Below, piece by piece: positions 5,113-53,824 of a stretch of DNA of 64,000 nucleotides. Under the pieces are notes generated by a model, which saw nothing but the letters and a program-made list of their open reading frames with translations, had not been told where the DNA came from and did no database searches. How positions within the stretch are numbered: the first letter of the stretch is position 1; each line of letters starts with the position of its first letter. Origin of the DNA: Clostridia bacterium (lineage in GTDB: Bacteria; Bacillota; Clostridia; UMGS1883); assembly GCA_045661145.1 (NCBI GenBank), contig JAZRFC010000087.1, positions 4,431 through 68,430 on the forward strand, read 5' to 3'. The position numbers and the translations under genes are program-made.

Positions 5113-5149
5113 AATAGAAAAATAGACTGCGCAGAAAAGAGGCGTTAAA

Positions 5150-6157
5150 ATGGAAGGTTTAATATTGCCAAAAGAATATACAGCCAAGCTTACTCTCCGT
5201 GAAACACAGAGAGCAATCAAAATTGTTAAGGATAATTTTCAGAAGAAGCTTGCCCGTGAACTTAATCTTGACAGAGTAACCGCCCCCGTTCTTGTAAGAA
5301 AGGACAGCGGTATAAATGACGACCTCAACGGCGTTGAACGCAAGGTTGAATTTGACACAAAGGAATGTGACGGTATTGTTGAAATCGTACAATCCCTTGC
5401 AAAGTGGAAGCGTATGGCTCTCTACCGCTACGGTTATCAGCCGGGCGAGGGTATCTACACCGATATGAATGCAGTACGTCGTGATGATAAGGTTGACAAT
5501 GTTCATTCTCTTTTTGTTGATCAGTGGGATTGGGAAAGAGTGATAAATAGGGAAGACCGTACTCTTGATTTCCTCAAGGATTGTGTAACAAGAATTGTAC
5601 GCGCGGCGGCAGATACACAGGACATCCTCTGTGAAGAATTCCCCATTCTCACAAAAACAATTGAGAGAGATGTTCATTTTATAACAACTCAGGAGCTGGA
5701 GGATATGTACCCCGGCTATAATGATAAAGAGCGTGAAGACGCTATTACAAGAAAGTACAAGACAGTATTCATTATGCAGATTGGTAAAGCTCTTAAGAGT
5801 GGCAAGCCCCACGACGGCAGAGCGCCCGACTACGACGATTGGTCGCTTAACGGTGACATTCTTGTATGGAACGATGTTCTTAACCGCAGTCTTGAAATTT
5901 CTTCAATGGGTATCCGTGTTGATAAGGAAACCCTTAAAGCACAGCTTACCGAGAGAAGTGCTCTTGACAGAATGCAGTTTGACTATCACAAAATGATTGA
6001 CAGTGAAACCTTGCCTCTTACAATCGGTGGCGGCATTGGACAGTCAAGACTTTGTATGCAGATGCTTGGTCGTGCACACATAGGCGAAGTTCAGGTTTCT
6101 GTATGGCCCGGCAAAATGCGTGAAATCTGCGGCGAAAACGGAATATTCTTACTTTGA
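5150..6157 (+). CDS. asnA: Aspartate--ammonia ligase (asparagine synthetase A)
   Basis: 335 aa. AsnA-type sequence: LTLRETQRAIKIVKDNFQ...VTAPVLV...DNVHSLFVDQWDWE...GGGIGQSRLCM. Confidence 0.85.
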   Translation: MEGLILPKEYTAKLTLRETQRAIKIVKDNFQKKLARELNLDRVTAPVLVRKDSGINDDLNGVERKVEFDTKECDGIVEIVQSLAKWKRMALYRYGYQPGEGIYTDMNAVRRDDKVDNVHSLFVDQWDWERVINREDRTLDFLKDCVTRIVRAAADTQDILCEEFPILTKTIERDVHFITTQELEDMYPGYNDKEREDAITRKYKTVFIMQIGKALKSGKPHDGRAPDYDDWSLNGDILVWNDVLNRSLEISSMGIRVDKETLKAQLTERSALDRMQFDYHKMIDSETLPLTIGGGIGQSRLCMQMLGRAHIGEVQVSVWPGKMREICGENGIFLL

Positions 6158-6164
6158 TAACGAA

Positions 6165-6200
6165 AAACAGAAATTCTCAAATAAGAATTTCTGTTTTTTT
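6165..6200 (+). terminator. Rho-independent terminator after asnA
   Basis: AAACAGAAATTC...GAATTTCTGTTT stem followed by TTTTT. Confidence 0.7.
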
Positions 6201-6447
6201 ATACATCATCTTGACAAAATCAACAAAAAAATAGAAAAAAATATCATTCCTTTGTGCAAAATGCCGAAAGAAAAAATAAATTATTGTATATTATACAGAT
6301 ATATAAATAACACATTTTATAGTAAAATTAATATACGGAGGTACTCTTCGTATATTATACAAAAACGGAGCAGATTCTCAATCTTAAAGATGGGAAGAAG
6401 CGGAAACAACCCCCGCTTCATGTCTTCGTGGAAAGGCGGTTTAGGCA

Positions 6448-8487
6448 ATGAATGTATTTAGTGGAGAAAACATCAGAAACGTAGTAGTATTAGGACACGG
6501 CGGAGCAGGAAAGACATCGCTTGTTGAAGCGATATTACATAAAGCCGGTGCATCTGACAGATTCGGAAAAATTGCAGACGGTACAACTGTAAGTGACTAT
6601 GATCCTGAAGAAACCAAGAGAAAGATTTCTGTTAACCTTTCTATGGCTCCTTGTGTATGGCATACTCCCAAAATACCGGATTCAAAGCTTAACCTTATTG
6701 ACACTCCCGGATATTTTGATTTTGCGGGAGAGGCTATGGGCGGTATTCGTGCAGCGGAGAGTGCGCTTATCGTTATAAATGCGAAAAGCGGTGTTAAGGT
6801 TGGTACTGAAAAGGCTTGGAAATATGCAACAGACCGCGGTATGGCAAGAATGATGTTCATCAATTGTATGGATGATGAAAATGCAGACTTTGACAAGGTT
6901 GTTTCAGAGATTCACGACAAGTTCGGCGCAAGTGCCGCAGTTTTCAGAATTCCGATTAAGGAAGGCAAGGAAATGAAGGGCTATGTCAACGTAGTAAGCG
7001 GTAAGGCATACTCAGTTGTAAGCGACGTTGAAACAGAAATTCCGATTCCCGACAATATGAAGGAATCCTACGATAAATATCACGATGCGCTTGTTGAGGC
7101 GGTTGCTCTTACAAGTGATGAGCTTCTTGAAAGATATTTTGCAGGCGACGTTATCACAGACGAAGAGATGAGAGCCGTTCTTAAGGGCAGCGTAAAACAG
7201 GGTCAGGTAGTTCCTGTTTACGGTGGTTTCTGTATTGACAAGACTTTCGCAGTTCGTTCTCTTATGGACGCAATGCTTAAGTATCTTCCCTCTCCCGTAG
7301 AGGCAGAAACAACCCCCGCTTGCAATGCAACGGCACCGCTTAGTGCTGTTGTGTTCAAGACACTGGCAGATTCCTACGGAAAGATTTCTCTTATCCGTGT
7401 AATGAGCGGTACATTAAAGGCTGACTCTACTGTACATAATGTCAGCAAAGACGCAAGTGAGAGAATAGGTAAACTCTATGTTATCCGTGGTAAGAAGCAG
7501 ATAGAAGTTCCCGAGCTTAAAGCCGGTGACATCGGTGCGGCAACAAAGCTGGCTATTACATTGACAGGCGATACCCTTGGAAAGCAGGGCGGAGAAGCAC
7601 TTGAGGGTATAGAATTCCCTGCTCCCGTTATTAAGATGGCAGTAATTCCTCAGGCAAAGGGCGATGAGGAAAAGATAGGCGCAGGTCTTCATAAACTTCG
7701 TGAGGAAGACCCTACCTTCTCTGTTATAAATAATAAAGAAACCAAGGAAATGCTCATTGCAGGTACAGGCGAGCTTCACCTTGATGTTATTACAAGCAAG
7801 CTCAAGACAAAATTCGGCGTGGCAGTAACTCTCCAGGCTCCCAAGATTGCATACCGTGAAACTATTCGCAAGAGTGTTAAGGTTCAGGGTAGACACAAGA
7901 AGCAGTCCGGCGGACACGGTCAGTTTGGTGATGTGTGGATTGAATTCAGCCATCACGACGGTAACGAGCTTATTTTCGAAGAAAAGATTGTGGGCGGTGC
8001 AGTTCCCAAAAACTACTTCCCCGCAGTTGAAAAGGGTCTTCAGGAATCCATCCTTAAGGGTGTTCTTGCAGGTTATCCTGTTGTAGGACTTAAAGCTGTC
8101 TTGGTTGACGGGTCTTATCATCCTGTTGACTCCTCCGAAATGGCGTTCAAGGTTGCTGCCGGTATCGCATACAAAGACGGCCTTACTCAGGCAAGCCCCG
8201 TTCTCCTTGAACCTATCGGTCATCTTGAAGTTCATATGCCCGAGGACCTTATGGGTGATATCATCGGTGACATCAACAAGCGCCGCGGCAGAATCCTCGG
8301 TATGAATCCCATCGGTGATGGTATCGGCGAAGTTATCGCGGAAGTTCCCGAATCCGAAATGGTTAAGTATGCAACAGACCTTCGCAGTATGACCCGTGCA
8401 AGAGGCAGCTTTACATTCTCCTTTGAAAGATATGAGGAAGCTCCCGACATCATTGCACAAAAAGTAATAGAAAGTGCAAAAGCGTAA
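6448..8487 (+). CDS. Elongation factor G family GTPase (stand-alone paralogue, EF-G2-like)
   Basis: 679 aa. G1 motif GHGGAGKTS, DTPGYFDF (G3), and EF-G domains II-V (e.g. HKKQSGGHGQFGDV). Not flanked by rpsL/rpsG/tuf. Confidence 0.8.
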   Translation: MNVFSGENIRNVVVLGHGGAGKTSLVEAILHKAGASDRFGKIADGTTVSDYDPEETKRKISVNLSMAPCVWHTPKIPDSKLNLIDTPGYFDFAGEAMGGIRAAESALIVINAKSGVKVGTEKAWKYATDRGMARMMFINCMDDENADFDKVVSEIHDKFGASAAVFRIPIKEGKEMKGYVNVVSGKAYSVVSDVETEIPIPDNMKESYDKYHDALVEAVALTSDELLERYFAGDVITDEEMRAVLKGSVKQGQVVPVYGGFCIDKTFAVRSLMDAMLKYLPSPVEAETTPACNATAPLSAVVFKTLADSYGKISLIRVMSGTLKADSTVHNVSKDASERIGKLYVIRGKKQIEVPELKAGDIGAATKLAITLTGDTLGKQGGEALEGIEFPAPVIKMAVIPQAKGDEEKIGAGLHKLREEDPTFSVINNKETKEMLIAGTGELHLDVITSKLKTKFGVAVTLQAPKIAYRETIRKSVKVQGRHKKQSGGHGQFGDVWIEFSHHDGNELIFEEKIVGGAVPKNYFPAVEKGLQESILKGVLAGYPVVGLKAVLVDGSYHPVDSSEMAFKVAAGIAYKDGLTQASPVLLEPIGHLEVHMPEDLMGDIIGDINKRRGRILGMNPIGDGIGEVIAEVPESEMVKYATDLRSMTRARGSFTFSFERYEEAPDIIAQKVIESAKA

Positions 8488-8494
8488 ATAAGGG

Positions 8495-8524
8495 GCGGTG
8501 CTGAGCTTTCAGCACCGCTTTTTG
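8495..8524 (+). terminator. Rho-independent terminator
   Basis: GCGGTGCTGA-gctt-TCAGCACCGC followed by TTTTT. Confidence 0.8.
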
Positions 8525-8574
8525 CATAAAGAGGAAAAAAGTACATATAATTATTTCAAGAAGGAGTGAATTTT

Positions 8575-9102
8575 ATGAGAAAATTAATTGTATTTATTGC
8601 AGTATTGACACTGCTTCTTACAGCCTGCGGCTCGGGTGAGACAAAAATTTCAGCCGACAGGGCAAAAGAGATTGCATTAAATCATGCAGGTGTTTTGAAA
8701 GAGGATGTAACTTTCCTGAAAGCTGAAAGGGACAGTGAAAACGAAAAAGCAGTTTACGAAGTAGAGTTCTACTCCAAGTATAAAAAGGAGTACGACTACG
8801 AGATTGATGCAAATACAGGAGAGATTCTCTCATATGATTCTGATGCAGAAAGTGCCACCCCTGCACAAAACGATGGAGAACAATCCGCAGCAGCCGAAAT
8901 AACAGAGATAACCGAGGATAAGGCAAAGGAACTTGCTCTTGCAAAAGTTCCCGGTGCAATAGCGGAAAACATCCGTGAGTTTAAGAAAGAGTTTGACGAC
9001 GGCAGGGAAGAATACGACGGAAAAATTGTATATAACAATACGGAATACGAATTTGAAATTGATGCCAGAACAGGCGAAATTATAAAGTGGGAAACAGATT
9101 AA
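8575..9102 (+). CDS. Lipoprotein with two PepSY domains
   Basis: Lipobox LLLTAC. Two repeats of the PepSY-like pattern (AKEIALNHAGV...YEVEF...YDYEIDANTGEIL and AKELALAKVPG...YEFEIDARTGEII). AAGGAG sits 8 nt upstream of ATG 8575. Confidence 0.75.
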   Translation: MRKLIVFIAVLTLLLTACGSGETKISADRAKEIALNHAGVLKEDVTFLKAERDSENEKAVYEVEFYSKYKKEYDYEIDANTGEILSYDSDAESATPAQNDGEQSAAAEITEITEDKAKELALAKVPGAIAENIREFKKEFDDGREEYDGKIVYNNTEYEFEIDARTGEIIKWETD

Positions 9103-9103
9103 A

Positions 9104-9141
9104 AGAAGCGGCAAACAAAGTTGTGTTTGCCGCTTCTTTTG
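9104..9141 (+). terminator. Rho-independent terminator
   Basis: AGAAGCGGCAAACA...TGTTTGCCGCTTCT followed by TTTT. Confidence 0.8.
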
Positions 9142-9212
9142 TGTCAAAAAGTAAACTGCTGTCGAAACGATAAAAAAATACTGATTTTACGCTGAATTTC
9201 ACGCAAAAATGC

Positions 9213-9240
9213 TTGCAATTACGCTAAATAGTGGTATAAT
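9213..9240 (+). promoter_or_regulatory. sigma-A promoter with extended -10, upstream of pgk
   Basis: TTGCAA (9213-9218), a 16-nt spacer, then TGgTATAAT (-10 hexamer at 9235-9240). Confidence 0.5.
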
Positions 9241-9327
9241 AAATAAGATGATAGTGCTGAAAGTAGGCTCTGTCGTAAAATCTGTGTAGAAAAATTTTAT
9301 GATATATTTTTATGAGGTGATTAAACT

Positions 9328-10509
9328 ATGAACAAAAAGACTATCGAAGACATCCAGGTACAGGGTAAAAAGGTCCTCGTTCGTTGTGACTTTAACGTAC
9401 CCCTTGACAAAGACGGAAACATCACAGACGAGAACAGAATTGTAGGTGCTATGCCCACAATCAAGTACCTTGCAGATAACGGTGCAAAGGTTATCCTTTG
9501 CTCTCATATGGGTAAGCCAAAGGGTGAGCCCAAGCCCGAGTTTTCTCTTTCTCCCGTAGCAAAGAGACTTTCCGAAAAGCTCGGCAAGGAAGTAGTATTT
9601 GCAGCAGATGATAACGTGGTTGGCGAAAATGCAAAGAAAGCAGTTGCTGAAATGAAAGATGGCGACATCGTTCTTCTTGAAAACACACGTTACAGAGCAG
9701 AAGAAACAAAGAATATAGAAACATTCAGCAAGGAGCTTGCTTCTCTTGCAGAAATCTTTGTTAACGATGCATTCGGTACAGCTCACAGAGCACACTGCTC
9801 CACAGTAGGTGTTACAGAATATCTCCCCGCAGTTTGCGGTTACCTCATTCAGAAGGAAATTGAATTCCTCGGCAATGCAGTAAATAACCCCGTTCGTCCT
9901 CTTGTTGCAATCCTCGGCGGAAGCAAGGTTTCCAGCAAAATCAGCGTAATTGAAAACCTTCTTGACAAGGTTGACAAGCTCATCATCGGCGGCGGTATGG
10001 CTTACACATTTATGGCTGCAAAGGGTCAGGAAGTAGGCGACAGCCTTCTTGAAAAGGACTATATCGACTACGCTAAGGAAATGATGGCAAAAGCAGGCGA
10101 TAAGCTTCTTCTTCCCATTGACACAGTAGTTGCTAAAGATTTTGCTAATGATGCAGAAAGCAAAGTAGTAGCTGAGGGCGGTATCCAGGCAGGCTGGCAG
10201 GGACTTGACATCGGACCCAAGACAATCGAACTTTTCTCCGATGCAGTTAAGAGTGCAAAGACAGTTGTATGGAATGGACCTATGGGCGTATGTGAAATGG
10301 AAAACTTTGCAAAGGGTACAAACGCAATCGCTCAGGTTCTTGCCCAAATCGATGCTACAACAGTTATCGGTGGCGGTGATAGCGTTGCTGCAGTTAACCA
10401 GGCAGGTCTTGGCGACAAGATGAGCCACATCTCCACAGGCGGCGGTGCAAGCCTTGAATTTCTTGAAGGAAAAGAGTTGCCTGGTATAGTAGCTCTTGAA
10501 GACAGATAA
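9328..10509 (+). CDS. pgk: Phosphoglycerate kinase
   Basis: 393 aa. Canonical Pgk motifs (RCDFNVP, GGAKVSSKI-like [23 protein letters not shown]). Confidence 0.95.
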
Positions 10510-10538
10510 TTCCGAATAAACGAAAGGATATGAAAACA

Positions 10539-11285
10539 ATGAGAAAAATCCTCGCTGCAGGTAATTGGAAAATGAACAATACACCCTCTCAGGCAGAGGC
10601 TATGATTAATGAACTTAAGGGTAAAGTTGCAGGCTGTAAGAACGATGTTCTTATCTGCCCCACATATGTATGTCTCCCCGCGGCTGTTAAAGCTGCAGAG
10701 GGCAGCAATATCAAAATAGGTGCACAGAATCTTCACTTTGAAGACAAGGGCGCATTCACAGGTGAAATCAGCGCACAGATGCTTAAGGAAATCGGCGTTG
10801 AATATGTTATTATCGGTCACAGCGAAAGACGTGAATACTTTGCAGAAACAGACGATACTGTAAATGCAAAGATTATTCAGGCTCTTAAGTATGACCTCAT
10901 CCCCGTACTTTGTTGCGGTGAATCTCTCAAGCAGAGAGAAGATACAATCACATTTGACTTTATTCGCAGCCAGATTAAGATTGCATTCCGCGGAATTTCC
11001 AAGGAAGATGCAGTTAAAATTGTAGTTGCATACGAGCCTATCTGGGCTATCGGCACAGGTAAGGTTGCAACAAGCGAGCAGGCTAACGAAGTTTGTAAGG
11101 ATATCAGAGAATGTCTTGCAGGTATCTATGATGAAGAAACTGCAAATAATATCCGTATCCTCTACGGTGGCAGCGTGAACAAAGACTGTGCAGCTGAACT
11201 TTTCGCAATGAGCGATATCGACGGCGGTCTTGTTGGCGGTGCAAGCCTTAAGCCCGATGATTTCTCTATCATCTGCAACGCTTAA
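10539..11285 (+). CDS. tpiA: Triose-phosphate isomerase
   Basis: [32 protein letters not shown] motifs. ATG 10539 has better SD spacing than ATG 10530 from the ORF track. Confidence 0.95.
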
Positions 11286-43772: not shown

Positions 43773-43847
43773 GCCCTCGTAGTAAAGCGGATATTACAAG
43801 CCCCTCCTAAGGGCTAGTCATCGGTTCGATTCCGGTCGGGGGTGCCA
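43773..43847 (+). tRNA. tRNA-Arg (anticodon CCT), CCA encoded
   Basis: Hand-folded cloverleaf. Acceptor GCCCTCG/CGGGGGT (G1-U72 and U5-G68 wobbles), D stem GTAA/TTAC, anticodon stem AGCCC/GGGCT with loop CTCCTAA, T arm ATCGG-TTCGATT-CCGGT, discriminator G plus CCA. Confidence 0.85.
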
Positions 43848-43899: not shown

Positions 43900-44096
43900 C
43901 TATGCAAATTTAACATAAAAGGAGAATATGAATTAGCAGAATTGCTTAGGAAAATTTAGGTAGATGAACAAAATTTAATGAATAAAACATTACTATGATG
44001 ATGTTTTAAAATTGGATATTACAAATTTTGAGCACATTTTGAGTGAAATCAAGATGTGCTTTTTTTATTTTAAAAGTACAAAGGAGGAAACTTACA

Positions 44097-44489
44097 ATGA
44101 CAAATAGCGAAATTAGAACTACAAAAAACATCAAACTTAAGGAGGAAGATAAAATGATGAAATTGGATTTGTATGAATCAAGATTGTTTGGTAGAATTTG
44201 TTACGGGTTTGGTAGAGATGAAGACGGCTATGTTTACATCAAAGATGATGAAGCTAATGTGGTTAGAATGATTTATGACATGGCTATTAATGGTCACAGT
44301 TTGCAGAATATTCAGGCAGAATTGTATAACCGTGGCGTTAAATCACCATCAGGTAAAGATAAGTGGACAAGGGACGTTATTGATAAAACTATAAATAACA
44401 AAAAGTATTTAGCTTATATTATTTCATTCGAAAATTTCGTTGAAGCATCTATCGAAAAAGAATCTCGTTGCAGATACATCAGAAGTTAG
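44097..44489 (+). CDS. Stand-alone 'Recombinase' domain protein (serine-recombinase fragment lacking the catalytic resolvase domain)
   Basis: YGFGRDEDGYVYIKDDEANVVRMIYDMAINGHSLQNIQAELYNRGVKSPSGKDKWTRDVIDKTINNKKY matches the central domain of large serine recombinases. No S-catalytic N-domain. AAAGGAGG precedes ATG 44097. Confidence 0.6.
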   Translation: MTNSEIRTTKNIKLKEEDKMMKLDLYESRLFGRICYGFGRDEDGYVYIKDDEANVVRMIYDMAINGHSLQNIQAELYNRGVKSPSGKDKWTRDVIDKTINNKKYLAYIISFENFVEASIEKESRCRYIRS

Positions 44490-44552
44490 CCTGGGGACAG
44501 AATTGCTGATTTGTTATATAATTCTATTATTAAAGTGAAAGGAGAATTGGAT

Positions 44553-45128
44553 ATGGACAAATCAGCAATTCAAAATCAGCTAAGGTATATCATTGCAAAA
44601 GAGCAGTATATGAAGCCGCTACTGGAAAATGAAATTATAACTGAAGAGGTGTATAACGAAGTATTAGTAAATCTGTATGATGAATTTGAGGTCTGGAGGT
44701 ATAGCAGAATTCAAAATCCAAGTGTTGAATTTAGAAAGACGAAAAGAGAGACAAGAAACGATTTATTGGAGCAAAATCCAGGATATATTTCTTTAACAGA
44801 ATTAGCAAGAAGTAAACCACAAAAATCAACAGGTTACACTATTCAAATGTGGTTAAGAGATAGTGGAACCGTTGATTTTCTTTCTTTGTGGGAGAATAAG
44901 TACAATGAAAAATTTCTTCCTATTTCGGTAGAATTAAACACTTTAACACCGAAATTGTGGATAAAAGAAACAAATTCTATCGGAATTGTATCAAGGCAGG
45001 GAAAGAATGGAGGGACATATGCACATAAAGAAATAGCAATGCATTTTATGTGTTGGCTATCTGCAGAAATGATGCTAAATGTTATAGAGAAATACTTGGA
45101 GGTAATGAATGATGAGAAAGATAACTGA
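44553..45128 (+). CDS. KilA-N domain-containing protein
   Basis: C-terminal half ISLTELAR...IQMWLRDSGTVDFLSLWE...TPKLWIKETNSIGIVSRQGKNGGTYAHKEIAMHFMCWLSAEM follows the KilA-N pattern. Confidence 0.65.
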   Translation: MDKSAIQNQLRYIIAKEQYMKPLLENEIITEEVYNEVLVNLYDEFEVWRYSRIQNPSVEFRKTKRETRNDLLEQNPGYISLTELARSKPQKSTGYTIQMWLRDSGTVDFLSLWENKYNEKFLPISVELNTLTPKLWIKETNSIGIVSRQGKNGGTYAHKEIAMHFMCWLSAEMMLNVIEKYLEVMNDEKDN

Positions 45129-46650
45129 AATTCCAGCTACAATTTTCAAACAGTCAACAGACATAAATAAACAATATAGAGTAGCGGCATACTGTAGGGT
45201 CAGTACAGATAAAGAAGAACAAGAGAATAGTCTGGAAAATCAAATTACATATTACAAAAACAAAATTGAGAATACACCTAATTGGACTTTAGTTGATATT
45301 TTTGCTGATTTTGGCATAAGCGGAATGAATGATAAAAACAGAATTGAATTTCAAAGAATGATTGAGATGTGTAATAAAGGAAAAATAGATTTGATTATCA
45401 CAAAGTCAATTTCACGATTTGCAAGAAATACGGTTGATTGTCTAACACATGTGAGAAAACTAAAAGCGAACAATATTGGAGTCATTTTTGAAAAGGAAAG
45501 TATAAATACACTTGATGCAGTTAGTGAAACATTTCTAACATGGTTTAGTGCTTTTGCTCAAGCTGAAAGTGAGTCACTTAGCCAAAATGTAACCAGAGGT
45601 AAAAGGATGGGGTATAAGGAAGGAAAGTTTACTTTTCCTCCATTCTTATATGGATATGATAGAGGTGATGGAATAACTCCTGTTATAATTCCAGAACAGG
45701 CAGCAATCGTTCGCAAAATCTTTCATATGTACTTGGAGGGAAATTCCATAGGCGGAATTAGGAAATGGCTTAACGATAACAACATAGAAACAACAAAGGG
45801 TATAGGTGAATGGAACAAATCTACTGTGTCTGGAATATTAAAAAATGAAAAATATAAAGGTGATGTACTCCTGCAGAAAAGTTATACGGTAGATTATCTC
45901 ACAAAAACAATAGCAAGAAACAAAGGTGAGGTAACACAATATTATATTGAAAATAACCATGAAGGAATTGTGTCACGGAAAATATTCGATATGGTGCAGG
46001 ATGAAATGCAAAGAAGGGCAAGTTTATACAGTAGTAAAACTCCAAGCAAATATAGTTCTAAATATGCTCTCACAGGCAAGGTGATCTGCGGAGAATGTGG
46101 TGCTAAGTACAGAAGAGTTACATGGTCACGAAATGGCAAAAAGAAAATTGTATGGAGATGTACAGAAAGGCTCACTAATGGCACTAAGAACTGTAAGAAT
46201 TCACCAACCATACTTGAAGAAGACTTGCATAATGAAATACTTAACAATTTAAAAGAGATATTGCCTATGTCAGACGATATAACTCAAAAAGTTAAAAATG
46301 AGATTGAGATTGTTTTAATGAAAAAAGATGATAATAATCCACAAGTTATCCAACGTAAAATTAAAAACTTTGAAAAAGAGGCTGAGGTTTTGAGGAATAT
46401 TTTAAAAGAAACAGAGGATAAAGAGTTTTATATCGAAAAAATTAAAAAAATAGAAAATGAATTATTGAAACTAAACAAAGTAAATAGTTTTGCTTCAGTA
46501 AAAGAATCTTATGATTTATTAAATCAAATTAAAAAGATTGTTGACAATAAGGAATTGAATATGGACACATATTTCGACATAGTGATAAGTAAAATAGTTC
46601 AATATATACTAGTATATAGAACAGGGAAAATAAATGTTATTTATGATTAA
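45109..46650 (+). CDS. Large serine recombinase (resolvase N-domain + recombinase domain + zinc ribbon + coiled coil)
   Basis: YRVAAYCRVSTDKEEQENSLENQ (catalytic Ser), ITKSISRFARN, recombinase domain (PPFLYGYD...EQAAIVRKIF), CGECGAKYRR...WRC zinc ribbon. 513 aa. Confidence 0.9.
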   Translation: MMRKITEIPATIFKQSTDINKQYRVAAYCRVSTDKEEQENSLENQITYYKNKIENTPNWTLVDIFADFGISGMNDKNRIEFQRMIEMCNKGKIDLIITKSISRFARNTVDCLTHVRKLKANNIGVIFEKESINTLDAVSETFLTWFSAFAQAESESLSQNVTRGKRMGYKEGKFTFPPFLYGYDRGDGITPVIIPEQAAIVRKIFHMYLEGNSIGGIRKWLNDNNIETTKGIGEWNKSTVSGILKNEKYKGDVLLQKSYTVDYLTKTIARNKGEVTQYYIENNHEGIVSRKIFDMVQDEMQRRASLYSSKTPSKYSSKYALTGKVICGECGAKYRRVTWSRNGKKKIVWRCTERLTNGTKNCKNSPTILEEDLHNEILNNLKEILPMSDDITQKVKNEIEIVLMKKDDNNPQVIQRKIKNFEKEAEVLRNILKETEDKEFYIEKIKKIENELLKLNKVNSFASVKESYDLLNQIKKIVDNKELNMDTYFDIVISKIVQYILVYRTGKINVIYD

Positions 46651-46958: not shown

Positions 46959-47807
46959 ATGAAAAACAATACTGTGTTTAATAGATTGTTTACGCAATAT
47001 TCTATCAATGATTTGCTTCAGGGTAATGATAATCAAGTATATAAGGCTGTTATTAAAAGAGTATTACAGGATCCTCATTCTAAAAATAATGGTGAAATTA
47101 TAAGTGAGATATATTCTTACATGGGAAAGAATTATCGAAATGAGTATTTTTATCAAAATACCCTTATTAATAAATTGTTATTAGGAAAACATAGTGTAAA
47201 TACAACTACTGCATTAACGCAGATACCTATAAATAAATCAAAAGCAGACTTTATTCTAATAAATGGAAAAGCGGTAGTGTATGAGATAAAAACAGAATTA
47301 GATAGTTTTGTTAGATTGGAAACACAGATAGATGATTACTATAAAGCTTTTAGTGATGTTTGTGTTGTTACCTGTGAAGAAAATTATGATAAATTAAATT
47401 CGATTCTTCAAGGAACTAATGTTGGTATTTGCATATTAACTAAAAGAAACACCCTTAATTTTATAAAAAATCCTATTTCGGATTATAGTAAGATTAGTCA
47501 TGAAATGCTGTTTAAAATCTTACATAAATGTGAATTTGAGAATATAGTAAATGAATATTTTGGCGCATTGCCGACTACGACTCCTGTTTTTTATTATGAT
47601 GAATGTTACAAAAGCTTTGTAAGAATACCTATAATGGAAGCGTATAGTGCTACTTTAAAGCAGTTAAAAAAGAGGAATAAGATATTGAAGGAAGAATTTA
47701 AAAAAGTACCATATGAATTAAAGTCGTTAATGTATTTTTATAGTGAATATGATAATAAATATAAAACATTGCAGAAGTTTTTAAATGAAAATTATGGGAG
47801 GGTCTAA
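46959..47807 (+). CDS. PD-(D/E)xK nuclease-fold-like protein, resembles the 'sce7726 family'
   Basis: 282 aa. Candidate D-x(11)-E-x-K core in SKADFILINGKAVVYEIKTELD (D97, E109, K111). Preceded by GAAAGGAGG. Family name recalled from NCBI naming, not verified. Confidence 0.5.
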   Translation: MKNNTVFNRLFTQYSINDLLQGNDNQVYKAVIKRVLQDPHSKNNGEIISEIYSYMGKNYRNEYFYQNTLINKLLLGKHSVNTTTALTQIPINKSKADFILINGKAVVYEIKTELDSFVRLETQIDDYYKAFSDVCVVTCEENYDKLNSILQGTNVGICILTKRNTLNFIKNPISDYSKISHEMLFKILHKCEFENIVNEYFGALPTTTPVFYYDECYKSFVRIPIMEAYSATLKQLKKRNKILKEEFKKVPYELKSLMYFYSEYDNKYKTLQKFLNENYGRV

Positions 47808-47810
47808 ATT

Positions 47811-48752
47811 ATGTATTTTCCTTATTTGAGAGGCAGACAATATGAGTTGCTTGCATTAAGAGAATTGGTTGAAAAAGATGCAATAAGTAAAAAGATCATA
47901 CCAATTATAGAACCGGTTAAGCTTTCATCCACCCTTTTAAAAACGATGGATGCTTTTATTAAAAACAATAGACAAATGATCGTAATATGCAATCCTGCGG
48001 TAGGGAACTTTGTCACAGATATGAAAACGGATGATAAGAATCAAGAGCAATTTCTTTCGTTGTTGAAAAGTGAAGAAATAATTAAAGGGCATATCATGAA
48101 GAAAATGTCTGCACAATTTATTGATATTTGGAAAAATAAAATGGGAGTGAACAAAGAGGAATGGGTAGTACTTAATAACAAGCGAGAGTTTGTGGATGAA
48201 TATTCTAATATTTTTGCAGAACATCCTCCAAAATTTGTTTTAATACCCGACGAAAGCAACTTTAGAAGAAAAACCAGAGAAGGGAATAATAGAGTTTTAT
48301 TAGCAGATAGATTTAATAAACTAGACAGAAATTCAGATTATTCAAAAAATGAAGATGAGTTTTACTCTGATGATCATTTATATTACGACATTGATGGTTA
48401 TAGAGGTTTTTCGGATTATTCCATAATTGGAAATGATTATTTAGAATCTGGTTTTGCGCCATATGCAGTAGCAATCCATATCATTTATTTAAAACAGGAT
48501 GATAGTTTGTGGGTGCATCATTTTGTTTCAGATTCAAATGACGATATTCAAAACCCTGCAAAAAAATTTTATGAGGCGGTTAGTAAACTTGCAATTTGGT
48601 GCGAAACTAATAATATCGATCTTACAATAGGATTAAAAACATTTATTGAACACTATAATAATCAAACATATCCAGGATTAGGAAGTGTTAAAAAATTGTC
48701 GTTAATGCACCACATAGAATTATTAAGCAAGCTTCTTGATGGGGTGAAGTGA
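47811..48752 (+). CDS. Beta-protein-like / 'sce7725 family'-like protein
   Basis: 313 aa. The N-terminus MYFPYLRGRQYELLALREL matches my recollection of the Beta_protein (P4 beta) and sce7725 families. 3-nt gap from the upstream gene. Confidence 0.5.
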   Translation: MYFPYLRGRQYELLALRELVEKDAISKKIIPIIEPVKLSSTLLKTMDAFIKNNRQMIVICNPAVGNFVTDMKTDDKNQEQFLSLLKSEEIIKGHIMKKMSAQFIDIWKNKMGVNKEEWVVLNNKREFVDEYSNIFAEHPPKFVLIPDESNFRRKTREGNNRVLLADRFNKLDRNSDYSKNEDEFYSDDHLYYDIDGYRGFSDYSIIGNDYLESGFAPYAVAIHIIYLKQDDSLWVHHFVSDSNDDIQNPAKKFYEAVSKLAIWCETNNIDLTIGLKTFIEHYNNQTYPGLGSVKKLSLMHHIELLSKLLDGVK

Positions 48753-49825
48753 TGAATTGTTGTGAAAAGTGTTTTAAGGATATTGAAATCAAAGCCATCA
48801 TAAAGACGCAAGGAAAAAAAGGAAATTGTGATTTTTGTGGGAGCAAAAATACATATATTTCAAATGTTTCAGAGAGTTTGGAAATAAAAGAAAACTTTGA
48901 ACGGTTAATAGATGTATATTCGTCAGAAAGTAGTAGACCAGAGGCATTTCCAAAAGAAAAAATGGATTTGTTAAAAAATATTCTGGCATATAAATGGAAT
49001 ATTTTTAATTTACAACCAGATGCTATATATAGATTTTTGACAACGCTTCTTCCAGAAAGATATATGGAACAACCTGAAATTTTTGACAATCCAGTAGGTA
49101 TATTCGAAGAGATTAATGATGATTATTTGGGAGAGTATTCAATTTTAGGAAAACATCAATGGGAAGATTTCGTTACAGAAATAAAAGAAAAAAATAGATT
49201 CCATACCAATATAATAAATAAGGATGTTTTATCAAAAGTTTTACAAGCCTCATTTAAGGTATATAAAAAGGGAACAATATTTTATAGAGCAAGAACTTGT
49301 CAGGATGAAAGAGGGTATACTAAAAATGAGATGTGGGCGCCACCACCACAAATGGCCTCTAGTGGAAGAGCGAACCCTGAAGGAATTAGTTGTTTGTATT
49401 TGGCTGATTCTATTGACACAACCTTGCACGAAATCAGAGCTGGTATATACGATTATGTAACTGTTGGTAGGTTTGTTTTACAAAGAGATATAGAAGTTGT
49501 TAATTTAGCAGATATAGATAAGATAAGTCCATTCAAGGATTTAGATATTAGCTTGATTGCTGCGAACATTCCTCATTTAATTAAGATCGGACAAAACATA
49601 GCTAAGCCATTAAGAAGATATGATAGTGCTTTAGATTATTTGCCTACGCAGTATATATGTGATTATATTAAGAGTGAAGGGTTTTCAGGTATAGAGTATA
49701 AAAGTACGATGCTAAATGCTGGAACTAATTATGCGATATTTAATGAGAATCTATTTAAGTGCACCAAGACGGAGGTTTACGAGGTGCAATCATTAAACTA
49801 TGGCTATCAATCGGTTCTAAAGTAA
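48752..49825 (+). CDS. RES-domain protein (putative NAD+-targeting toxin) with N-terminal CxxC...CxxC zinc ribbon (HEPN/RES-NTD1-like)
   Basis: N-terminus CCEKCF...GNCDFCG. RES core FYRAR...SGRANPEGISCLYLADSIDTTLHEI (Arg, Glu) and YLPTQYICDYIKSEGFSGIEYKSTM...NYAIFN (Ser). ATGA start/stop overlap with the upstream gene. Confidence 0.8.
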   Translation: MNCCEKCFKDIEIKAIIKTQGKKGNCDFCGSKNTYISNVSESLEIKENFERLIDVYSSESSRPEAFPKEKMDLLKNILAYKWNIFNLQPDAIYRFLTTLLPERYMEQPEIFDNPVGIFEEINDDYLGEYSILGKHQWEDFVTEIKEKNRFHTNIINKDVLSKVLQASFKVYKKGTIFYRARTCQDERGYTKNEMWAPPPQMASSGRANPEGISCLYLADSIDTTLHEIRAGIYDYVTVGRFVLQRDIEVVNLADIDKISPFKDLDISLIAANIPHLIKIGQNIAKPLRRYDSALDYLPTQYICDYIKSEGFSGIEYKSTMLNAGTNYAIFNENLFKCTKTEVYEVQSLNYGYQSVLK

Positions 49826-49914: not shown

Positions 49915-49937
49915 ATTTACTAACTAATTATAGAAAT

Positions 49938-50201
49938 ATCACCGATTTTGTCACCGATAATGTCACCAATAGAAAAAACTGTCACCGTTAGGGTGACAGA
50001 TAAGGATAGCTTCTTAAAAAATAGATTAAAGATTGGTGAACCCCAATTTGGACCCCAAAATGAACCCTAAAATTGTATGTGTTGTTGATAAAATTTAAAA
50101 GGTTTACAAGTGAACTGAGGCTTGTTGCATCGTTGGAGATTTTATAGTAAACTTTCATGTAAAGGAATACAACAACAAAATGTCCTATTAAATGTCCCAA
50201 T
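49938..50201. repeat. Three clusters of 12-nt-period tandem repeats in a non-coding gap
   Basis: Set A 49938-49973 (ATCACCGATTTT/GTCACCGATAAT/GTCACCAATAGA). Hairpin CTGTCACC-gttag-GGTGACAG at 49979-49999. Set B 50038-50073 (GAACCCCAATTT/GGACCCCAAAAT/GAACCCTAAAAT). Set C 50178-50201 (AAATGTCCTATT/AAATGTCCCAAT). Confidence 0.7.
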
Positions 50202-50421: not shown

Positions 50422-50455
50422 ATTATTTCATATCAAACAAGTTGATATTTCATTA
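50422..50455 (+). repeat. 34-nt direct repeat, copy 1 (upstream of the Pycsar-like module)
   Basis: ATTATTTCATATCAAACAAGTTGATATTTCATTA is 31/34 identical to 53582-53615. Contains the palindrome ATATCAA..TTGATAT. Confidence 0.8.
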
Positions 50456-50570
50456 AATGTTTGAAATATAGTTTACCTTTCCTACATAAACAGAATAATT
50501 TGAATATTAAGAAGCTTTTTCGCAATTTTATTATTTTTCACAATTGACTTTTTTTGAGTTTTATATTAAA

Positions 50571-50867
50571 ATGAGAATAGAGGTGAAGGATGTGGATAAA
50601 TTAAATACTGTAAAGAAAATAATATCATATGTAAAACCCAAAATAGATTTATATCGAAGTTTTCCAGAGAAAGAGGAAGATATCATTCAATCTCTAACAA
50701 TAATTTTTGATATTAACTCAGAATGTTGGCCTAGAATAATTAAAGACGGAGTTTTTGTAGAATCTTTTAAAAAAGATATGGGGAAAGCTAGAATGACAGC
50801 TTTAGAAAAGTTACTGTATAAATTAGATGAGCAACATTATAAAAGAATCATGTTTATAAATGATTAA
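50571..50867 (+). CDS. Hypothetical protein (about 92-99 aa), first gene of the Pycsar-like module
   Basis: ORF downstream of TTGACT(50544)-17 nt-TAAAAT(50567). Start is ambiguous (ATG 50571, or GTG 50592 with GAGGTGA SD). No recognisable domain. Confidence 0.4.
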   Translation: MRIEVKDVDKLNTVKKIISYVKPKIDLYRSFPEKEEDIIQSLTIIFDINSECWPRIIKDGVFVESFKKDMGKARMTALEKLLYKLDEQHYKRIMFIND

Positions 50868-50963
50868 AAAAAGACACATACATGTTGTTTTAAGCATATA
50901 ATTATAAAGAGAGCACAGAACTAGGTTTAAGCATAGCACCGAGGTTCGTGAAAGGTTGAGATT

Positions 50964-51464
50964 ATGTTAAATACAATGATAATATATATAAATAAACTTG
51001 CTACAGAAGCCAGAAGAGGATGTGAGCAAGAAAATGAGTTTTTAAAAGGTATGCGCAATCTTCAAGAAAATGAAATGCAGCAAGTTGTTGAATCGTTTGG
51101 CGGCAAATTGGAACAAATATCTGATGATTCAATGGAGAGTAATGCACTAATAAGCGGAACACAAGATAATTTTGTTATTAAATATAAAAATTATCATACT
51201 ATAGACATTCTACATGAGTTAGGGCACGCCTTTTTACATTTAGAAAAAAAGAAAAAAGAAAAACCCTTAGATGGAGATTATGGTTTAGATGAGACTTCTG
51301 CATCAGTTTTTGCAAGGGCTTTTTTGATGCCAGAGTATTTATTTTACAATGATGTTATTGAAAATTCTATAAATAGAATATGTGATATTCAGCACATTGC
51401 AGATATGTATAGTACTACATGTTCAGATGTAATAACTCGTGGTCGAGAATTAAATTTGTGGTAG
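50964..51464 (+). CDS. ImmA/IrrE-family (M78, DUF955) zinc metallopeptidase
   Basis: HEXXH motif in ILHELGHAFLH, followed by SASVFARAFLMPEYLF (the family's E..AN.FA..LLMP-like block). Confidence 0.75.
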   Translation: MLNTMIIYINKLATEARRGCEQENEFLKGMRNLQENEMQQVVESFGGKLEQISDDSMESNALISGTQDNFVIKYKNYHTIDILHELGHAFLHLEKKKKEKPLDGDYGLDETSASVFARAFLMPEYLFYNDVIENSINRICDIQHIADMYSTTCSDVITRGRELNLW

Positions 51465-51478
51465 GTTAGGGGATACAA

Positions 51479-52981
51479 ATGATTAAAATTACGGATATAC
51501 GAGAGAAGGCAAAATCTTATTCTGCTAAATACTATAGGAATTTATATGAGTATTCTGAAGAAAAATTATATATTTTTTTATCTATTGATATATGTGGATC
51601 TACTATTCTAAAAGCAAACAAGGAAAATAGATGGTTTGAAATAAATCGTATTTTATATAACTATGATTTTAATAGAATGAACTTCTGGAAATTAAATGGA
51701 GATGAAGTCCTTTATTACGAAGAATTTAATAACATAAGTCATTTAATAGAAATTATCAAAGAGGCATATAAACATATTAAAAATATGGAGTCTGCAATAA
51801 ATAGTAAAGAAAATAATTTTACAAATGAAATTGTGGGACTTAAGGGTACACTTTGGATAGCAAGAACTGATAAAAGCGATTCAAAAGATTTTGATAGTAT
51901 TCGATTAAAAAATGAAATAATTACGGAATACATAGGTTTAAGTGTTGATGAAGGATTTAGACTCACTCAAAAAGCATCCAAAAGTAAATTAGTAATTGAT
52001 CCTAAAATAGTACATTTATTAAATCAGTCATATTTAGTTTCAGAAAACCCTGATTTGAATTCCTCATTAAAAAAAATGGCATGTAAAGTGAGTAGCAAGG
52101 ATTATATAGATATTTTTACAAACATACGCTTTGTTGGATATACAAAACTGAAGGGGATATGGAAGGATAGAGGATATCCTGTTTTTTGGTATTTTGAAAA
52201 TAAAGATACAGATTATGAATATGATGAACATCTAGATCAAATGTATGTTGGAGACAAAATTAAAAGATGTTATTCTTTTTCGGATGAAAAAGTAAATATT
52301 CATATGGATTTGAATAAAATTTTTGAAAATGTCTCTTTGTCTAATGAAATCAAAAAAATCCTTGCAATTGCAAGTAAAAGTAAGCCACATAAATCAATTG
52401 ACAGTTTTGCTAGGTTATATTATTCTTGTGTTTGTGTAAATACTCATACAAATCATGTGTTGATTGCTAAACGAAGCGAAAAAAGACATCATTTAAAAAA
52501 TGTTTGGGAGTTTGGGATTTCTAAACATACATCGACACCAATTTCTATAGCAGAGGTCATAAAAAACGATTATAAAAATGAATTTGGTATAGATATTGAA
52601 GTTGTTACTGATGGAGAAAAGGAAAATAATATAATACCAATGCATTTTTGTACGATTTATCGCAAAGGGACAAAGCATAATAATATATTATGTTTTGCTA
52701 AAATAGTTGGTGGAGAGTATAAAGATGAAGACTTGATAAAGATTATAAGAAAAAATACTGATAAAAAAAGATATATTGATTTTAAGTTTATTGGTAAAAA
52801 TGATACTCAAAAGTTTGAGACAATTTCCATAGAAGATATTGAAAAAGATTCCATTATGGCAACAAATAACAAATCGAAAGCCTTTGGTGAAAACAGGGCA
52901 GTTATGTATTTTGCACAATCTGTCTCTGCTGCAATAAATTATTTCCAAGATGCTAGGAAGGAGAAAAAATGGTATGAATGA
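51479..52981 (+). CDS. Class III nucleotidyl cyclase (PycC-like) fused to a C-terminal degenerate Nudix-like (AGS-C-like) domain
   Basis: Cyclase blocks FLSIDICGST (metal Asp37), KLNGDEVLYY (Asp75), LKGTLWIA, GLSVDEGFRLTQKA, GYTKLKGIWKDRGYPVFWY. C-terminal aa 312-415: VLIAKRSEKRHHLKNVWEFG...NDYKNEFGI (Nudix-fold-like, catalytic Glu residues mostly absent). Confidence 0.75.
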   Translation: MIKITDIREKAKSYSAKYYRNLYEYSEEKLYIFLSIDICGSTILKANKENRWFEINRILYNYDFNRMNFWKLNGDEVLYYEEFNNISHLIEIIKEAYKHIKNMESAINSKENNFTNEIVGLKGTLWIARTDKSDSKDFDSIRLKNEIITEYIGLSVDEGFRLTQKASKSKLVIDPKIVHLLNQSYLVSENPDLNSSLKKMACKVSSKDYIDIFTNIRFVGYTKLKGIWKDRGYPVFWYFENKDTDYEYDEHLDQMYVGDKIKRCYSFSDEKVNIHMDLNKIFENVSLSNEIKKILAIASKSKPHKSIDSFARLYYSCVCVNTHTNHVLIAKRSEKRHHLKNVWEFGISKHTSTPISIAEVIKNDYKNEFGIDIEVVTDGEKENNIIPMHFCTIYRKGTKHNNILCFAKIVGGEYKDEDLIKIIRKNTDKKRYIDFKFIGKNDTQKFETISIEDIEKDSIMATNNKSKAFGENRAVMYFAQSVSAAINYFQDARKEKKWYE

Positions 52982-53501
52982 AAAACAAACGTTGAGAGAT
53001 ACACTTAATGTTATCAATGAATGGACAAGTAACTGTGATGTTAAGGTTTCTATAATATTGGCGATTTTTGGCGTGGTTTTTTCTGCATTTTTTTCATCAG
53101 ATTATGTAAAAATTTTTATTAAAATAATTAAAAAATGTTTTGATGATGTATCGTTATTTGAATGGATATACATAATTGCATTATTGGCTATTTTACTTGC
53201 AATCATAATAGGTTTTTGGAAACTAATAAGAGTATTGTTGCCAACAATAAATACGGATAAAGAATCTCTAATGTTTTTTGGTGGAATTTCAAAATATAAA
53301 ACACCAGATGAGTATTATAATAAGGTTAAAAATTATTCTGATGACAAGGTTTGTGAAGATTTGATATATCAAATTTATGCGGCCGCAAAGATTTGCACAC
53401 AAAAATTTAAGAATCAAAAAATTGGGCTTTACTGTCTTACCTTTGGAAGCTTTATTTTTGTGATTTGGTGTGTTATAGGATGTTTTGTGTTTTATATGTA
53501 A
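52974..53501 (+). CDS. Small 3-TM membrane effector, PycTM (DUF5706)-like
   Basis: 175 aa. TM segments VSIILAIFGVVFSAFF, IYIIALLAILLAIIIGFW and LYCLTFGSFIFVIWCVIGCFVF. Soluble block SLMFFGGISKYKTPDEYY...IYQIYAAAKICTQKFK resembles the Pycsar effector family. 8-nt overlap with the cyclase gene. Confidence 0.65.
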   Translation: MNEKQTLRDTLNVINEWTSNCDVKVSIILAIFGVVFSAFFSSDYVKIFIKIIKKCFDDVSLFEWIYIIALLAILLAIIIGFWKLIRVLLPTINTDKESLMFFGGISKYKTPDEYYNKVKNYSDDKVCEDLIYQIYAAAKICTQKFKNQKIGLYCLTFGSFIFVIWCVIGCFVFYM

Positions 53502-53581
53502 ATAGGATAAATTGTTAGGTACCTATTTCGTACAAGAGAGCCAGAAAACATTGGTTTTATATTTCGCAATTTACGAAGTAA

Positions 53582-53615
53582 ATTATTTTATATCAACGAA
53601 GTTGATATTTCATTA
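53582..53615 (+). repeat. 34-nt direct repeat, copy 2 (downstream of the Pycsar-like module)
   Basis: ATTATTTTATATCAACGAAGTTGATATTTCATTA with perfect 8-bp palindrome arms ATATCAAC/GTTGATAT. Confidence 0.8.
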
Positions 53616-53616
53616 T

Positions 53617-53644
53617 GAAAATGCCAGACAGTGTTTGGCATTTT
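53617..53644 (+). terminator. Terminator-like hairpin
   Basis: AAAATGCCAGA-cagtg-TTTGGCATTTT. Confidence 0.5.
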
Positions 53645-53676
53645 ATGTTGCATCTATTATGAACGTGAAAGCCACC

Positions 53677-53706
53677 AAAAAAGCAAGTCGTAAGGCTTGC
53701 TTTTTT
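53677..53706 (+). terminator. Rho-independent terminator near the right edge of the island
   Basis: AAGCAAG-tcgtaagg-CTTGCTT followed by TTTT. Confidence 0.55.
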
Positions 53707-53824
53707 GTGTTCATACCATATAACTGCAAATAAAAAATATTATATCACCAATGAAATTACTTTTTTGTTATGTAAAAATTGCAATACTGAAAAAGGTGTG
53801 ATATAATAAAATTGGTGATGGATT

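Follow-up and report, generated by a model that had tools for sequence, protein, structure and literature searches.

A candidate Pycsar-like module in a clostridial mobile island: a putative cyclase-Nudix enzyme, its M78 protease partner and a PycTM effector

When a gene for a PycTM-type membrane effector overlaps the gene of an unusual cyclase-fold protein and lies downstream of a gene for an ImmA/IrrE-type (M78) protease, do the three form a Pycsar system, and what is the role of the protease in it? The locus that raises this question lies in a stretch of 64,000 nucleotides (nt) from a Clostridia bacterium of the lineage UMGS1883 (GenBank assembly GCA_045661145.1, contig JAZRFC010000087.1, positions 4,431 to 68,430 of the forward strand), which is referred to below as the window and whose first base is position 1. 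Four open reading frames (ORFs) are listed one after another on the + strand at 50544/50571-50867, 50964-51464, 51479-52981 and 52950/52974-53501, with alternative start codons for the first and last, and encode proteins of 107/98, 166, 500 and 183/175 amino acids (aa), respectively. An earlier reading of the bare sequence (the original prediction) had proposed four co-directional genes, which the ORF listing bears out, and had interpreted them as a Pycsar-type cyclase and effector behind a regulatory front end of two genes. The interpretation reached here, which is judged somewhat better than even, is a Pycsar-like system of three genes that is carried on mobile elements and aborts infection through a cyclic nucleotide, with its cyclase under the control of a dedicated protease.

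The third ORF (51479..52981, + strand) encodes the putative signal-generating enzyme, a 500-aa protein consisting of a divergent class III cyclase domain, a variable linker and a degenerate Nudix domain. A word-indexed search of 5.8 billion clusters yields 13 relatives of this protein, none of them annotated. A 13-sequence profile searched against 1.84 billion representatives (clustered at 50% identity) returns 1739 sequences at E <= 1e-3, a count that may take in Nudix-only proteins and fragments, and 344 at E <= 1e-30. The AlphaFold2 model computed from the 13-sequence alignment has a mean predicted local distance difference test score (pLDDT) of 82. When this model is compared with the PDB using Foldseek, each of the top 50 matches is a class III adenylyl or guanylyl cyclase (E 6.9e-8 to 4.5e-6), the best being CyaB (3r5g, 6.9e-8), and within these 50 the target-normalised template-modelling scores are 0.5-0.75 with sequence identities of 8-15%. 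The fold search also matches the model to viral proteins with guanylate-cyclase domains. The secondary-structure elements of the model follow the order of the cyclase homology domain, and the Foldseek matches and motif positions together place the domain at approximately residues 25-240 (51551..52198, + strand).

Conservation among 76 relatives appears to fall on the positions at which a class III cyclase carries out catalysis. Residue D37 is invariant and ends strand beta-1 in the motif F-x-S-x-D-x-x-N-S-T-x-x-K, the pair G74-D75 is invariant in the beta-2/beta-3 turn (W-K-x-x-G-D-E), and the series G153-x3-D157-x3-R161 is invariant in helix alpha-4, where it has the spacing of the canonical G-x-x-[IV]-N-x-A-x-R. 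A further pair, K225-G226, is near-invariant in the beta-7/beta-8 turn (72-74 of 76 sequences; K225 in 72 of 76). In the model, D37 and D75 are putative metal ligands and K71 and E150 are putative base-specifying residues, with D157, R161 and K225 as additional putative catalytic residues. The base-specifying positions are Lys or Arg at 71 and Asp or Glu at 150 across the family (Lys71 and Glu150 in the window protein). By the textbook rule, Lys together with Asp or Glu at the classical base-specifying positions is the adenylate-cyclase pair. These residues may thus hint, as a weak lead only, that a purine product stays possible.

The class III cyclase blocks claimed in the original prediction stand in part. 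The two Asp contexts are present (IDICGST at residues 36-42 and NGDE at residues 73-76) and the modelled fold is that of a cyclase, but no sequence profile recognises the blocks: Pfam, PADLOC, NCBIfam and a phmmer search of the PDB find no cyclase in the 500-aa protein, and NCBIfam reports a weak Nudix-type match only. The cyclase assignment consequently rests on predicted structure and motif positions. At this level of fold and motif, and not of sequence homology, the N-terminal part of the modelled protein is a class III cyclase fold. It does not group with housekeeping cyclases.

The C-terminal part of the enzyme, overlooked in the original prediction, is a Nudix-fold domain with a degenerate box at approximately residues 310-500 (52406..52978, + strand), as delimited by profile, Pfam and fold matches. 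A profile of 76 family sequences matches MutT-type chains in the PDB (3ees, 8.2e-7), the Pfam NUDIX family matches 16 of the 76 relatives, and many viral Nudix hydrolases match the full-length model by fold. The PADLOC model PDC-S07 (135 positions) matches 47 of the 76 relatives within the Nudix domain only, with the window protein below its reach. The catalytic Nudix box GX5EX7REUXEEXGU is kept neither in the window protein nor in the family. At residues 363, 364, 367 and 368, which correspond to the REx2EE positions, the window protein has N, D, N and E, and these positions vary in both family alignments. Because the box is degenerate, the domain is probably a ligand-binding or regulatory module rather than a hydrolase. 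Two other names were considered and rejected, AGS-C for this domain and PDC-S07 for the whole protein. AGS-C does not apply, as no family member matches PF18134 and AGS-C is described as immunoglobulin (Ig)-like, and PDC-S07 is unsuitable for the whole 500-aa protein, as its model covers only the Nudix domain of relatives.

The last ORF (52974..53501, + strand) encodes a 175-aa membrane effector of the PycTM family (DUF5706, pJV1-spdB3-type) with three transmembrane (TM) segments. The three hydrophobic segments and the PycTM/DUF5706 resemblance noted in the original prediction are both confirmed: the segments lie at residues 20-45, 55-93 and 149-175, and the E-values of the protein are 5.1e-11 for Pfam PycTM (PF18967, previously DUF5706) and 8e-32 for PADLOC PycTM. 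PADLOC, which had been suggested as a check, thus recognises the effector and reports no PycC match for the 500-aa protein. The PADLOC PycTM alignment, which begins at residue 9 of the 183-aa form, agrees with a start at ATG 52974, and this start gives exactly the predicted 8-nt overlap with the gene of the 500-aa protein.

The second ORF (50964..51464, + strand) encodes an ImmA/IrrE-type (M78) zinc metalloprotease of 166 aa, as had been predicted. Its match to Pfam Peptidase_M78 (4.5e-6, 26.9 bits) lies above the curated cut-off of 22, and it contains HELGH at residues 84-88 followed by an E..A..FA..LMP motif. Both the HExxH and the E/FA/MP motif are kept in 20 orthologues. The best PADLOC match is RmrA (3.8e-10), followed by capP (2.6e-9), and both matches cover the peptidase part only: the capP alignment spans positions 71-147 of 242, and those to the RmrA models span approximately positions 129-292 of 357-400. 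The protein has the size of a peptidase domain alone, with no helix-turn-helix (HTH) and no GAF domain, and no gene for an HTH substrate occurs in the window or recurs at the other loci examined. The likeness to CapP/CapH that had been drawn for this protease is thus not upheld.

The most informative evidence on the three genes comes from approximately 26 independent loci taken from metagenomes or metagenome-assembled genomes, genomes, phages and a plasmid. The Firmicute loci, gut Clostridia among them, come from Clostridia, Eubacteriaceae, Lachnospiraceae, Acutalibacteraceae, Ruminococcaceae and Bacilli, and the remainder from Fibrobacter, Planctomycetaceae, Fimbriimonadaceae, five temperate Clostridioides difficile phages and a Leptospira interrogans plasmid. 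In all of these loci the M78 gene lies directly 5' of the cyclase gene, with a gap of <=26 nt or an overlap, and wherever the pair is present the protease motifs are intact. The pair spans Bacillota, Fibrobacterota, Planctomycetota, Armatimonadota and Spirochaetota, and the one exception to the pairing is a distant relative on a Sphingomonas plasmid. PycTM adjoins the long-form (Nudix-bearing) cyclase in 12 independent loci, often with overlap of the two genes, and the PycTM proteins of these loci belong to more than one subfamily. Gene order varies while content is kept, with the order TM-M78-cyclase at locus L011 and a convergent TM gene in the phiC2-type phages. The constant unit is therefore the protease together with the cyclase, and the Nudix domain and PycTM co-travel in the Firmicute and phage branch. 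The divergence of M78 correlates with that of the cyclase (Spearman 0.74, from 105 non-independent pairs), and that of PycTM does not follow (0.19), a pattern to be expected if the sensor pair is fixed and the effector exchangeable. The distribution of the genes contradicts the predicted two-gene front end, as no partner accompanies the cyclase more constantly than the M78 protease, even where PycTM is missing, and the small upstream ORF is an orphan absent elsewhere.

The same triad of genes occurs between the endolysin and integrase genes (the moron region) of phiC2, phiCD27, CDKM9, phiCDHM19 and phiCD508, and consists of a 173-aa protein annotated 'metallo-protease', a 528-aa protein annotated as hypothetical or as 'putative Nudix hydrolase' and a DUF5706 protein, all three of which are confirmed by family hidden Markov models. 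The triad is located at 4369-7034 both in phiCDHM19 (L027) and in phiC2 (L028). The interval between lysis genes and integrase is the usual site of prophage-borne exclusion or defence genes, so this position supports a defence role, and it also accommodates a role in regulating the element itself. The phiC2 record cites similarity to ORF1 and ORF2 of Leptospira phage LE1, in agreement with the Leptospira plasmid match, where the pair is carried on an LE1-like plasmid. On bacterial DNA, the module adjoins restriction-modification genes in Fibrobacter, and at L025 it lies beside restriction-modification and other defence genes with no recombinase in the stretch examined. At L007 the triad lies beside a PRTase-CE gene, a small ORF and a retron-like reverse transcriptase. 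Such defence-type settings speak for the reading favoured here.

In the reading favoured here, the 500-aa protein would be the signal generator, a very divergent class III nucleotide cyclase that, to judge from its modelled fold, makes a cyclic mononucleotide. For the Nudix-fold domain, the probable role is to bind a nucleotide-type ligand or to gate the cyclase in another way. By analogy with Pycsar, the cyclic mononucleotide would open or assemble PycTM, and the resulting membrane damage would abort the infection. The M78 protease, which shares translational coupling and inheritance with the cyclase, would be its dedicated post-translational regulator. It may either activate the cyclase by cleavage after sensing infection or restrain it in the manner of an antitoxin. 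Of the original claim that this is a Pycsar-type system, the core would then survive, with a cyclase fold coupled to a true PycTM in a low-GC mobile island, although the enzyme is no recognisable PycC. The sequence-based refuting condition named in the original prediction, a cyclase of the housekeeping group beside a TM protein unlike PycTM, does not apply.

Several results weigh against this reading, beginning with the sequence profiles. The PADLOC PycC and Pfam Guanylate_cyc (PF00211) models, applied at E <= 0.1, give no match to the window protein or to any of its 76 relatives, and the 76-sequence family profile retrieves Nudix chains only, and no cyclase, from the PDB. When hhalign sets the N-terminal profile against a PF00211 family derived from the cyclase near the triad in L007, the outcome is non-significant (probability 0.4%, E 0.16), and the sole alignment, equally non-significant, sets G153-x3-D157-x3-R161 over the cyclase motif G-x-G-I-N-L-A-N-R. 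This overlay, although suggestive, is given no weight as a sign of homology. The alpha-4 Asn of canonical cyclases is replaced in the whole family by the invariant Asp157. On the effector side, two related long-form lineages (L005 and L009) have no PycTM next to the cyclase. The short-form relatives, which are proteins of 270-380 aa with no Nudix domain from Fibrobacter, Planctomycetaceae, Fimbriimonadaceae and Leptospira, keep the M78 partner with no PycTM or other obvious effector nearby, and the ancestral pair therefore works without PycTM.

A more far-reaching proposal, offered tentatively, is that the M78 protease and its cryptic cyclase could sense infection in a new way, with the synthesis of a second messenger gated directly by proteolysis. 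For example, the protease might cut an auto-inhibitory linker or Nudix region upon a phage cue or in response to a Nudix-bound nucleotide. The pair, present in five phyla and on phages and plasmids, would be ancient and wired to varied outputs, with PycTM as the output in Clostridia and C. difficile phages.

A different reading of the genes is considered rather unlikely. Here, the core would resemble a toxin-antitoxin system in which the cyclase-fold protein is itself the growth-arresting effector, acting for instance through a drain on nucleoside triphosphates or a toxic nucleotide. The M78 protein would serve as its antitoxin or neutraliser, and PycTM would be a later amplifier acquired in Clostridia. 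Such a core would account for a pair that is universal while PycTM is confined to the long form, and for a PycTM whose divergence does not track that of the cyclase. The protease and cyclase genes are also tightly coupled or overlapping, as the genes of toxin-antitoxin pairs are, the protease scores best in PADLOC against RmrA with its presumably antitoxin-like role, and the short-form pairs without an effector keep the idea alive. However, PycTM is adjacent in 12 independent long-form loci and survives changes of gene order, an argument for PycTM as the normal output of these loci, the window protease does not have the HTH domain of the RmrA type, and we know of no class III cyclase that is a direct toxin.

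An improbable alternative is that the module has no part in defence, and that an ImmA-like anti-repressor and a cyclic-nucleotide signal together govern induction, the lysis-lysogeny decision or transfer of the carrier element. ImmA-type proteases control the induction of integrative and conjugative elements (ICEs) and prophages, according to work cited in PMC13228613. The settings in which the module is found are compatible with such a role, as it lies beside integrase and repressor genes in the phiC2-type phages and at L032, and is carried by an ICE-like element (L001) and the LE1-like plasmid of Leptospira. Against this, the protease is coupled to a cyclase gene rather than a repressor gene. 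In the Pycsar and Pucsar literature PycTM is known so far only as a suicide effector, the interval between lysis genes and integrase is a classic site of prophage defence, and L025 has the module among defence genes with no recombinase in the stretch examined.

The weakest alternative, a canonical two-gene Pycsar under a CapP/CapH-like switch in which DNA damage leads the M78 protease to cleave the small protein as a repressor and so derepress the operon, can draw on the enclosure of all four co-directional genes by a single pair of 34-nt repeats, on the capP match of the protease and on small DUF1413 genes that precede the protease gene in three other loci, yet it is very improbable because the protease has no HTH or GAF domain for sensing single-stranded DNA (ssDNA) and matches only part of the capP model, no repressor gene is present, the small protein lacks both an HTH and homologues, most loci have no partner gene and the protease stays with the cyclase despite changes of gene order, even between the TM and cyclase genes at L011.

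The small ORF itself (50571..50867, 98 aa, or 107 aa from TTG 50544; + strand) is of doubtful membership in the system. It is longer than chance would predict, as an equally long stop-free stretch occurs in 0.95% of shuffles of the intergenic region (p ~0.01). A search of the 5.8 billion clusters with its protein matches only the protein itself, and none of the other loci examined has a homologue upstream of the module. The original prediction had found no recognisable HTH in this protein, and the Pfam scan agrees, with neither an HTH nor any other Pfam family reported. The match to TIGR04540 in NCBIfam (E 0.0012, 18.9 bits) is far under the cut-off of 50, and the single-sequence model is all-helical with a pLDDT of 63, which falls short of what a fold search requires. 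A DUF1413 gene (74-76 aa; Pfam 5.9e-16) lies directly upstream of the protease gene in three loci that otherwise diverge, at 2294-2518 in L007, 4004-4231 in L019 and 353-583 in L020. Its product is unrelated to the small ORF of the window and could be an optional fourth component in these three lineages.

The surroundings of the module in the window are those of a mobile island. The GC content of the stretch at approximately 43.85-53.8 kb is 0.28-0.33, compared with 0.40-0.45 elsewhere in the window. One end of this stretch lies just past rpmF and a tRNA-Arg(CCT) gene (43773-43847) and the other at an adenine deaminase gene. Within it, a large serine recombinase of 513 aa is encoded at 45109-46650, and ahead of it lie two small ORFs (44043-44489 and 44511-45128). 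An overlapping unit of three genes for sce7726-family, sce7725-family and RES-domain proteins occupies 46959-49825, just upstream of the module, and is probably a separate defence or toxin system. The sce7726-family gene is also matched by the PADLOC 'cll' model (1e-13), and the RES-domain gene has a weak match to a HEPN/RES N-terminal domain. The low GC content, the serine recombinase and this trio together identify the stretch as a mobile island with at least one other defence-type system. The spacer that follows the RES gene (49930-50000) contains several closely spaced copies of GTCACC/GGTGAC and a perfect hairpin, CTGTCACC-GTTA-GGGTGACAG, at 49979-49999 that is followed by a T-run on the minus strand. 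This spacer may hold an array of iteron or operator type, or else a terminator on the minus strand.

All four ORFs, including the small one, are enclosed exactly by the two copies of a 34-nt direct repeat. The left copy (50422..50455, + strand) contains an imperfect 8+8 palindrome, ATATCAAA-CAA-GTTGATAT, and the right copy (53582..53615, + strand) the perfect palindrome ATATCAAC-GAA-GTTGATAT, so that the palindrome takes the general form ATATCAAC-N3-GTTGATAT. The copies agree at 31 of 34 positions, 100 shuffles produce no match of this kind and no third copy occurs anywhere in the window. The repeat could have been left by the recombination or insertion of a cassette, or it could be a protein-binding site that both flanks share. 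On the ICE-like element L001, a duplicated stretch of approximately 150 nt likewise encloses the three-gene module. Its core is 46 nt with 91% identity (4945-4990 and 8681-8726), surrounded in each case by approximately 100 nt of weaker similarity. The sequence duplicated here is the 3' end of the small ORF that lies upstream, and its downstream copy is a decayed partial reading frame. The placement of the module between direct repeats both in the window and in L001 suggests cassette-like insertion.

Downstream of the PycTM gene, two terminator-like hairpins are present on the + strand, each followed by a U-run. The first (53618-53644; -14 kcal/mol, z-score -3.9) has as its last base the position 53644 at which the original prediction had ended the module, and the second lies at 53676-53707 (-18.5 kcal/mol, z-score -8.7). 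Both were found by folding and are not among the sites listed by a consensus terminator scanner. Promoter-like sites found by a consensus scan are no commoner than in shuffled sequence (32 versus 27.8 +/- 4.6).

Two neighbours at other loci are recorded here for completeness. At L007, a 226-aa PF00211 cyclase followed by a radical-SAM enzyme lies past the reverse transcriptase, within the same stretch of neighbours (5804-10829) as the PRTase-CE gene, and this pair has approximately 45 close relatives and is not, to our knowledge, a named system. At L033, a DUF3800 gene (4185-5030) takes the place of PycTM after a long-form cyclase, just before the end of the contig, and its product may be an alternative effector or an unrelated neighbour.

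If the favoured reading is correct, this variant gives two handles on how Pycsar systems sense infection, namely a fused domain of the ligand-binding type and a dedicated protease. Because the cyclase family is missed by Pfam, NCBIfam and PADLOC, defence finders would report an orphan PycTM at such loci or nothing at all. The presence of the triad in classic temperate phages of C. difficile makes a prophage exclusion function testable in a host of medical relevance, with a bearing on how phage therapies are designed.

The nearest known system is Pycsar, which consists of a PycC cyclase and a PycTM or PycTIR effector (Tal et al., 2021, as described in PMC13069673; bioRxiv 10.64898/2026.08.12.744502). 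As in Pycsar, the gene of a class III-fold cyclase adjoins and overlaps a PycTM gene within a mobile defence island, and by analogy the expected logic would be the same, with a cyclic nucleoside monophosphate made upon infection, membrane damage and abortive infection. Unlike in Pycsar, the window cyclase stands outside all described PycC clades at the sequence level, and the two-gene architecture is extended by an M78 protease gene that is invariably coupled here. The window cyclase is also fused to a degenerate Nudix domain, whereas the Pycsar-2 subclade carries an Ig-like AGS-C domain instead. Pucsar is a cGMP-producing offshoot of Pycsar with PucTIR or PucTM effectors (bioRxiv 10.64898/2026.08.12.744502). 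As its PycTM-type effectors with three TM segments are driven by nucleotides other than cCMP or cUMP, a purine product is conceivable for the present system too. However, the cyclases of Pucsar can be recognised as class III enzymes and form the sister group of the Pycsar-1 subclade, and Pucsar systems have two genes with neither protease nor Nudix domain. In a recent survey, neither an M78 protease nor a Nudix domain is reported for any Pycsar or Pucsar subclade.

The protease recalls CapP/CapH, IrrE/DdrO and ImmA/ImmR in that an M78 domain with HExxH and Glu/FA/MP motifs is encoded near the start of an immune operon. In CapP, the peptidase is joined by HTH and GAF domains that bind ssDNA, and IrrE also senses ssDNA through such domains (PMC13228613). 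Unlike the proteases of these systems, the window protease has no HTH or GAF domain and no HTH substrate gene accompanies it, and the cyclase as its constant neighbour points to post-translational rather than transcriptional control. A second comparison is with RmrA, which we take to be the antitoxin-like M78 component of the Rosmer system, as both have an M78 peptidase domain encoded in a small operon of defence or toxin-antitoxin-like character. RmrA includes an N-terminal HTH. In contrast to the window protease, the RmrA models are longer, so that only their peptidase segment aligns, and the partner RmrT is unrelated to the cyclase. For the Nudix domain, the closest parallels are NrtR, a degenerate Nudix ligand sensor, and PDC-S07, a stand-alone Nudix defence candidate. 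As in these, the Nudix fold has lost REx2EE partly or wholly and occurs in a regulatory or defence context, although here it is fused to a cyclase. The full-text literature that was searched, which leaves subscription-only papers outside its reach, contains no description of the triad of protease, cyclase-Nudix protein and PycTM. By analogy with its nearest known relative, the triad looks like an undescribed member of the wider Pycsar kinship that would work as Pycsar does, with two added components.

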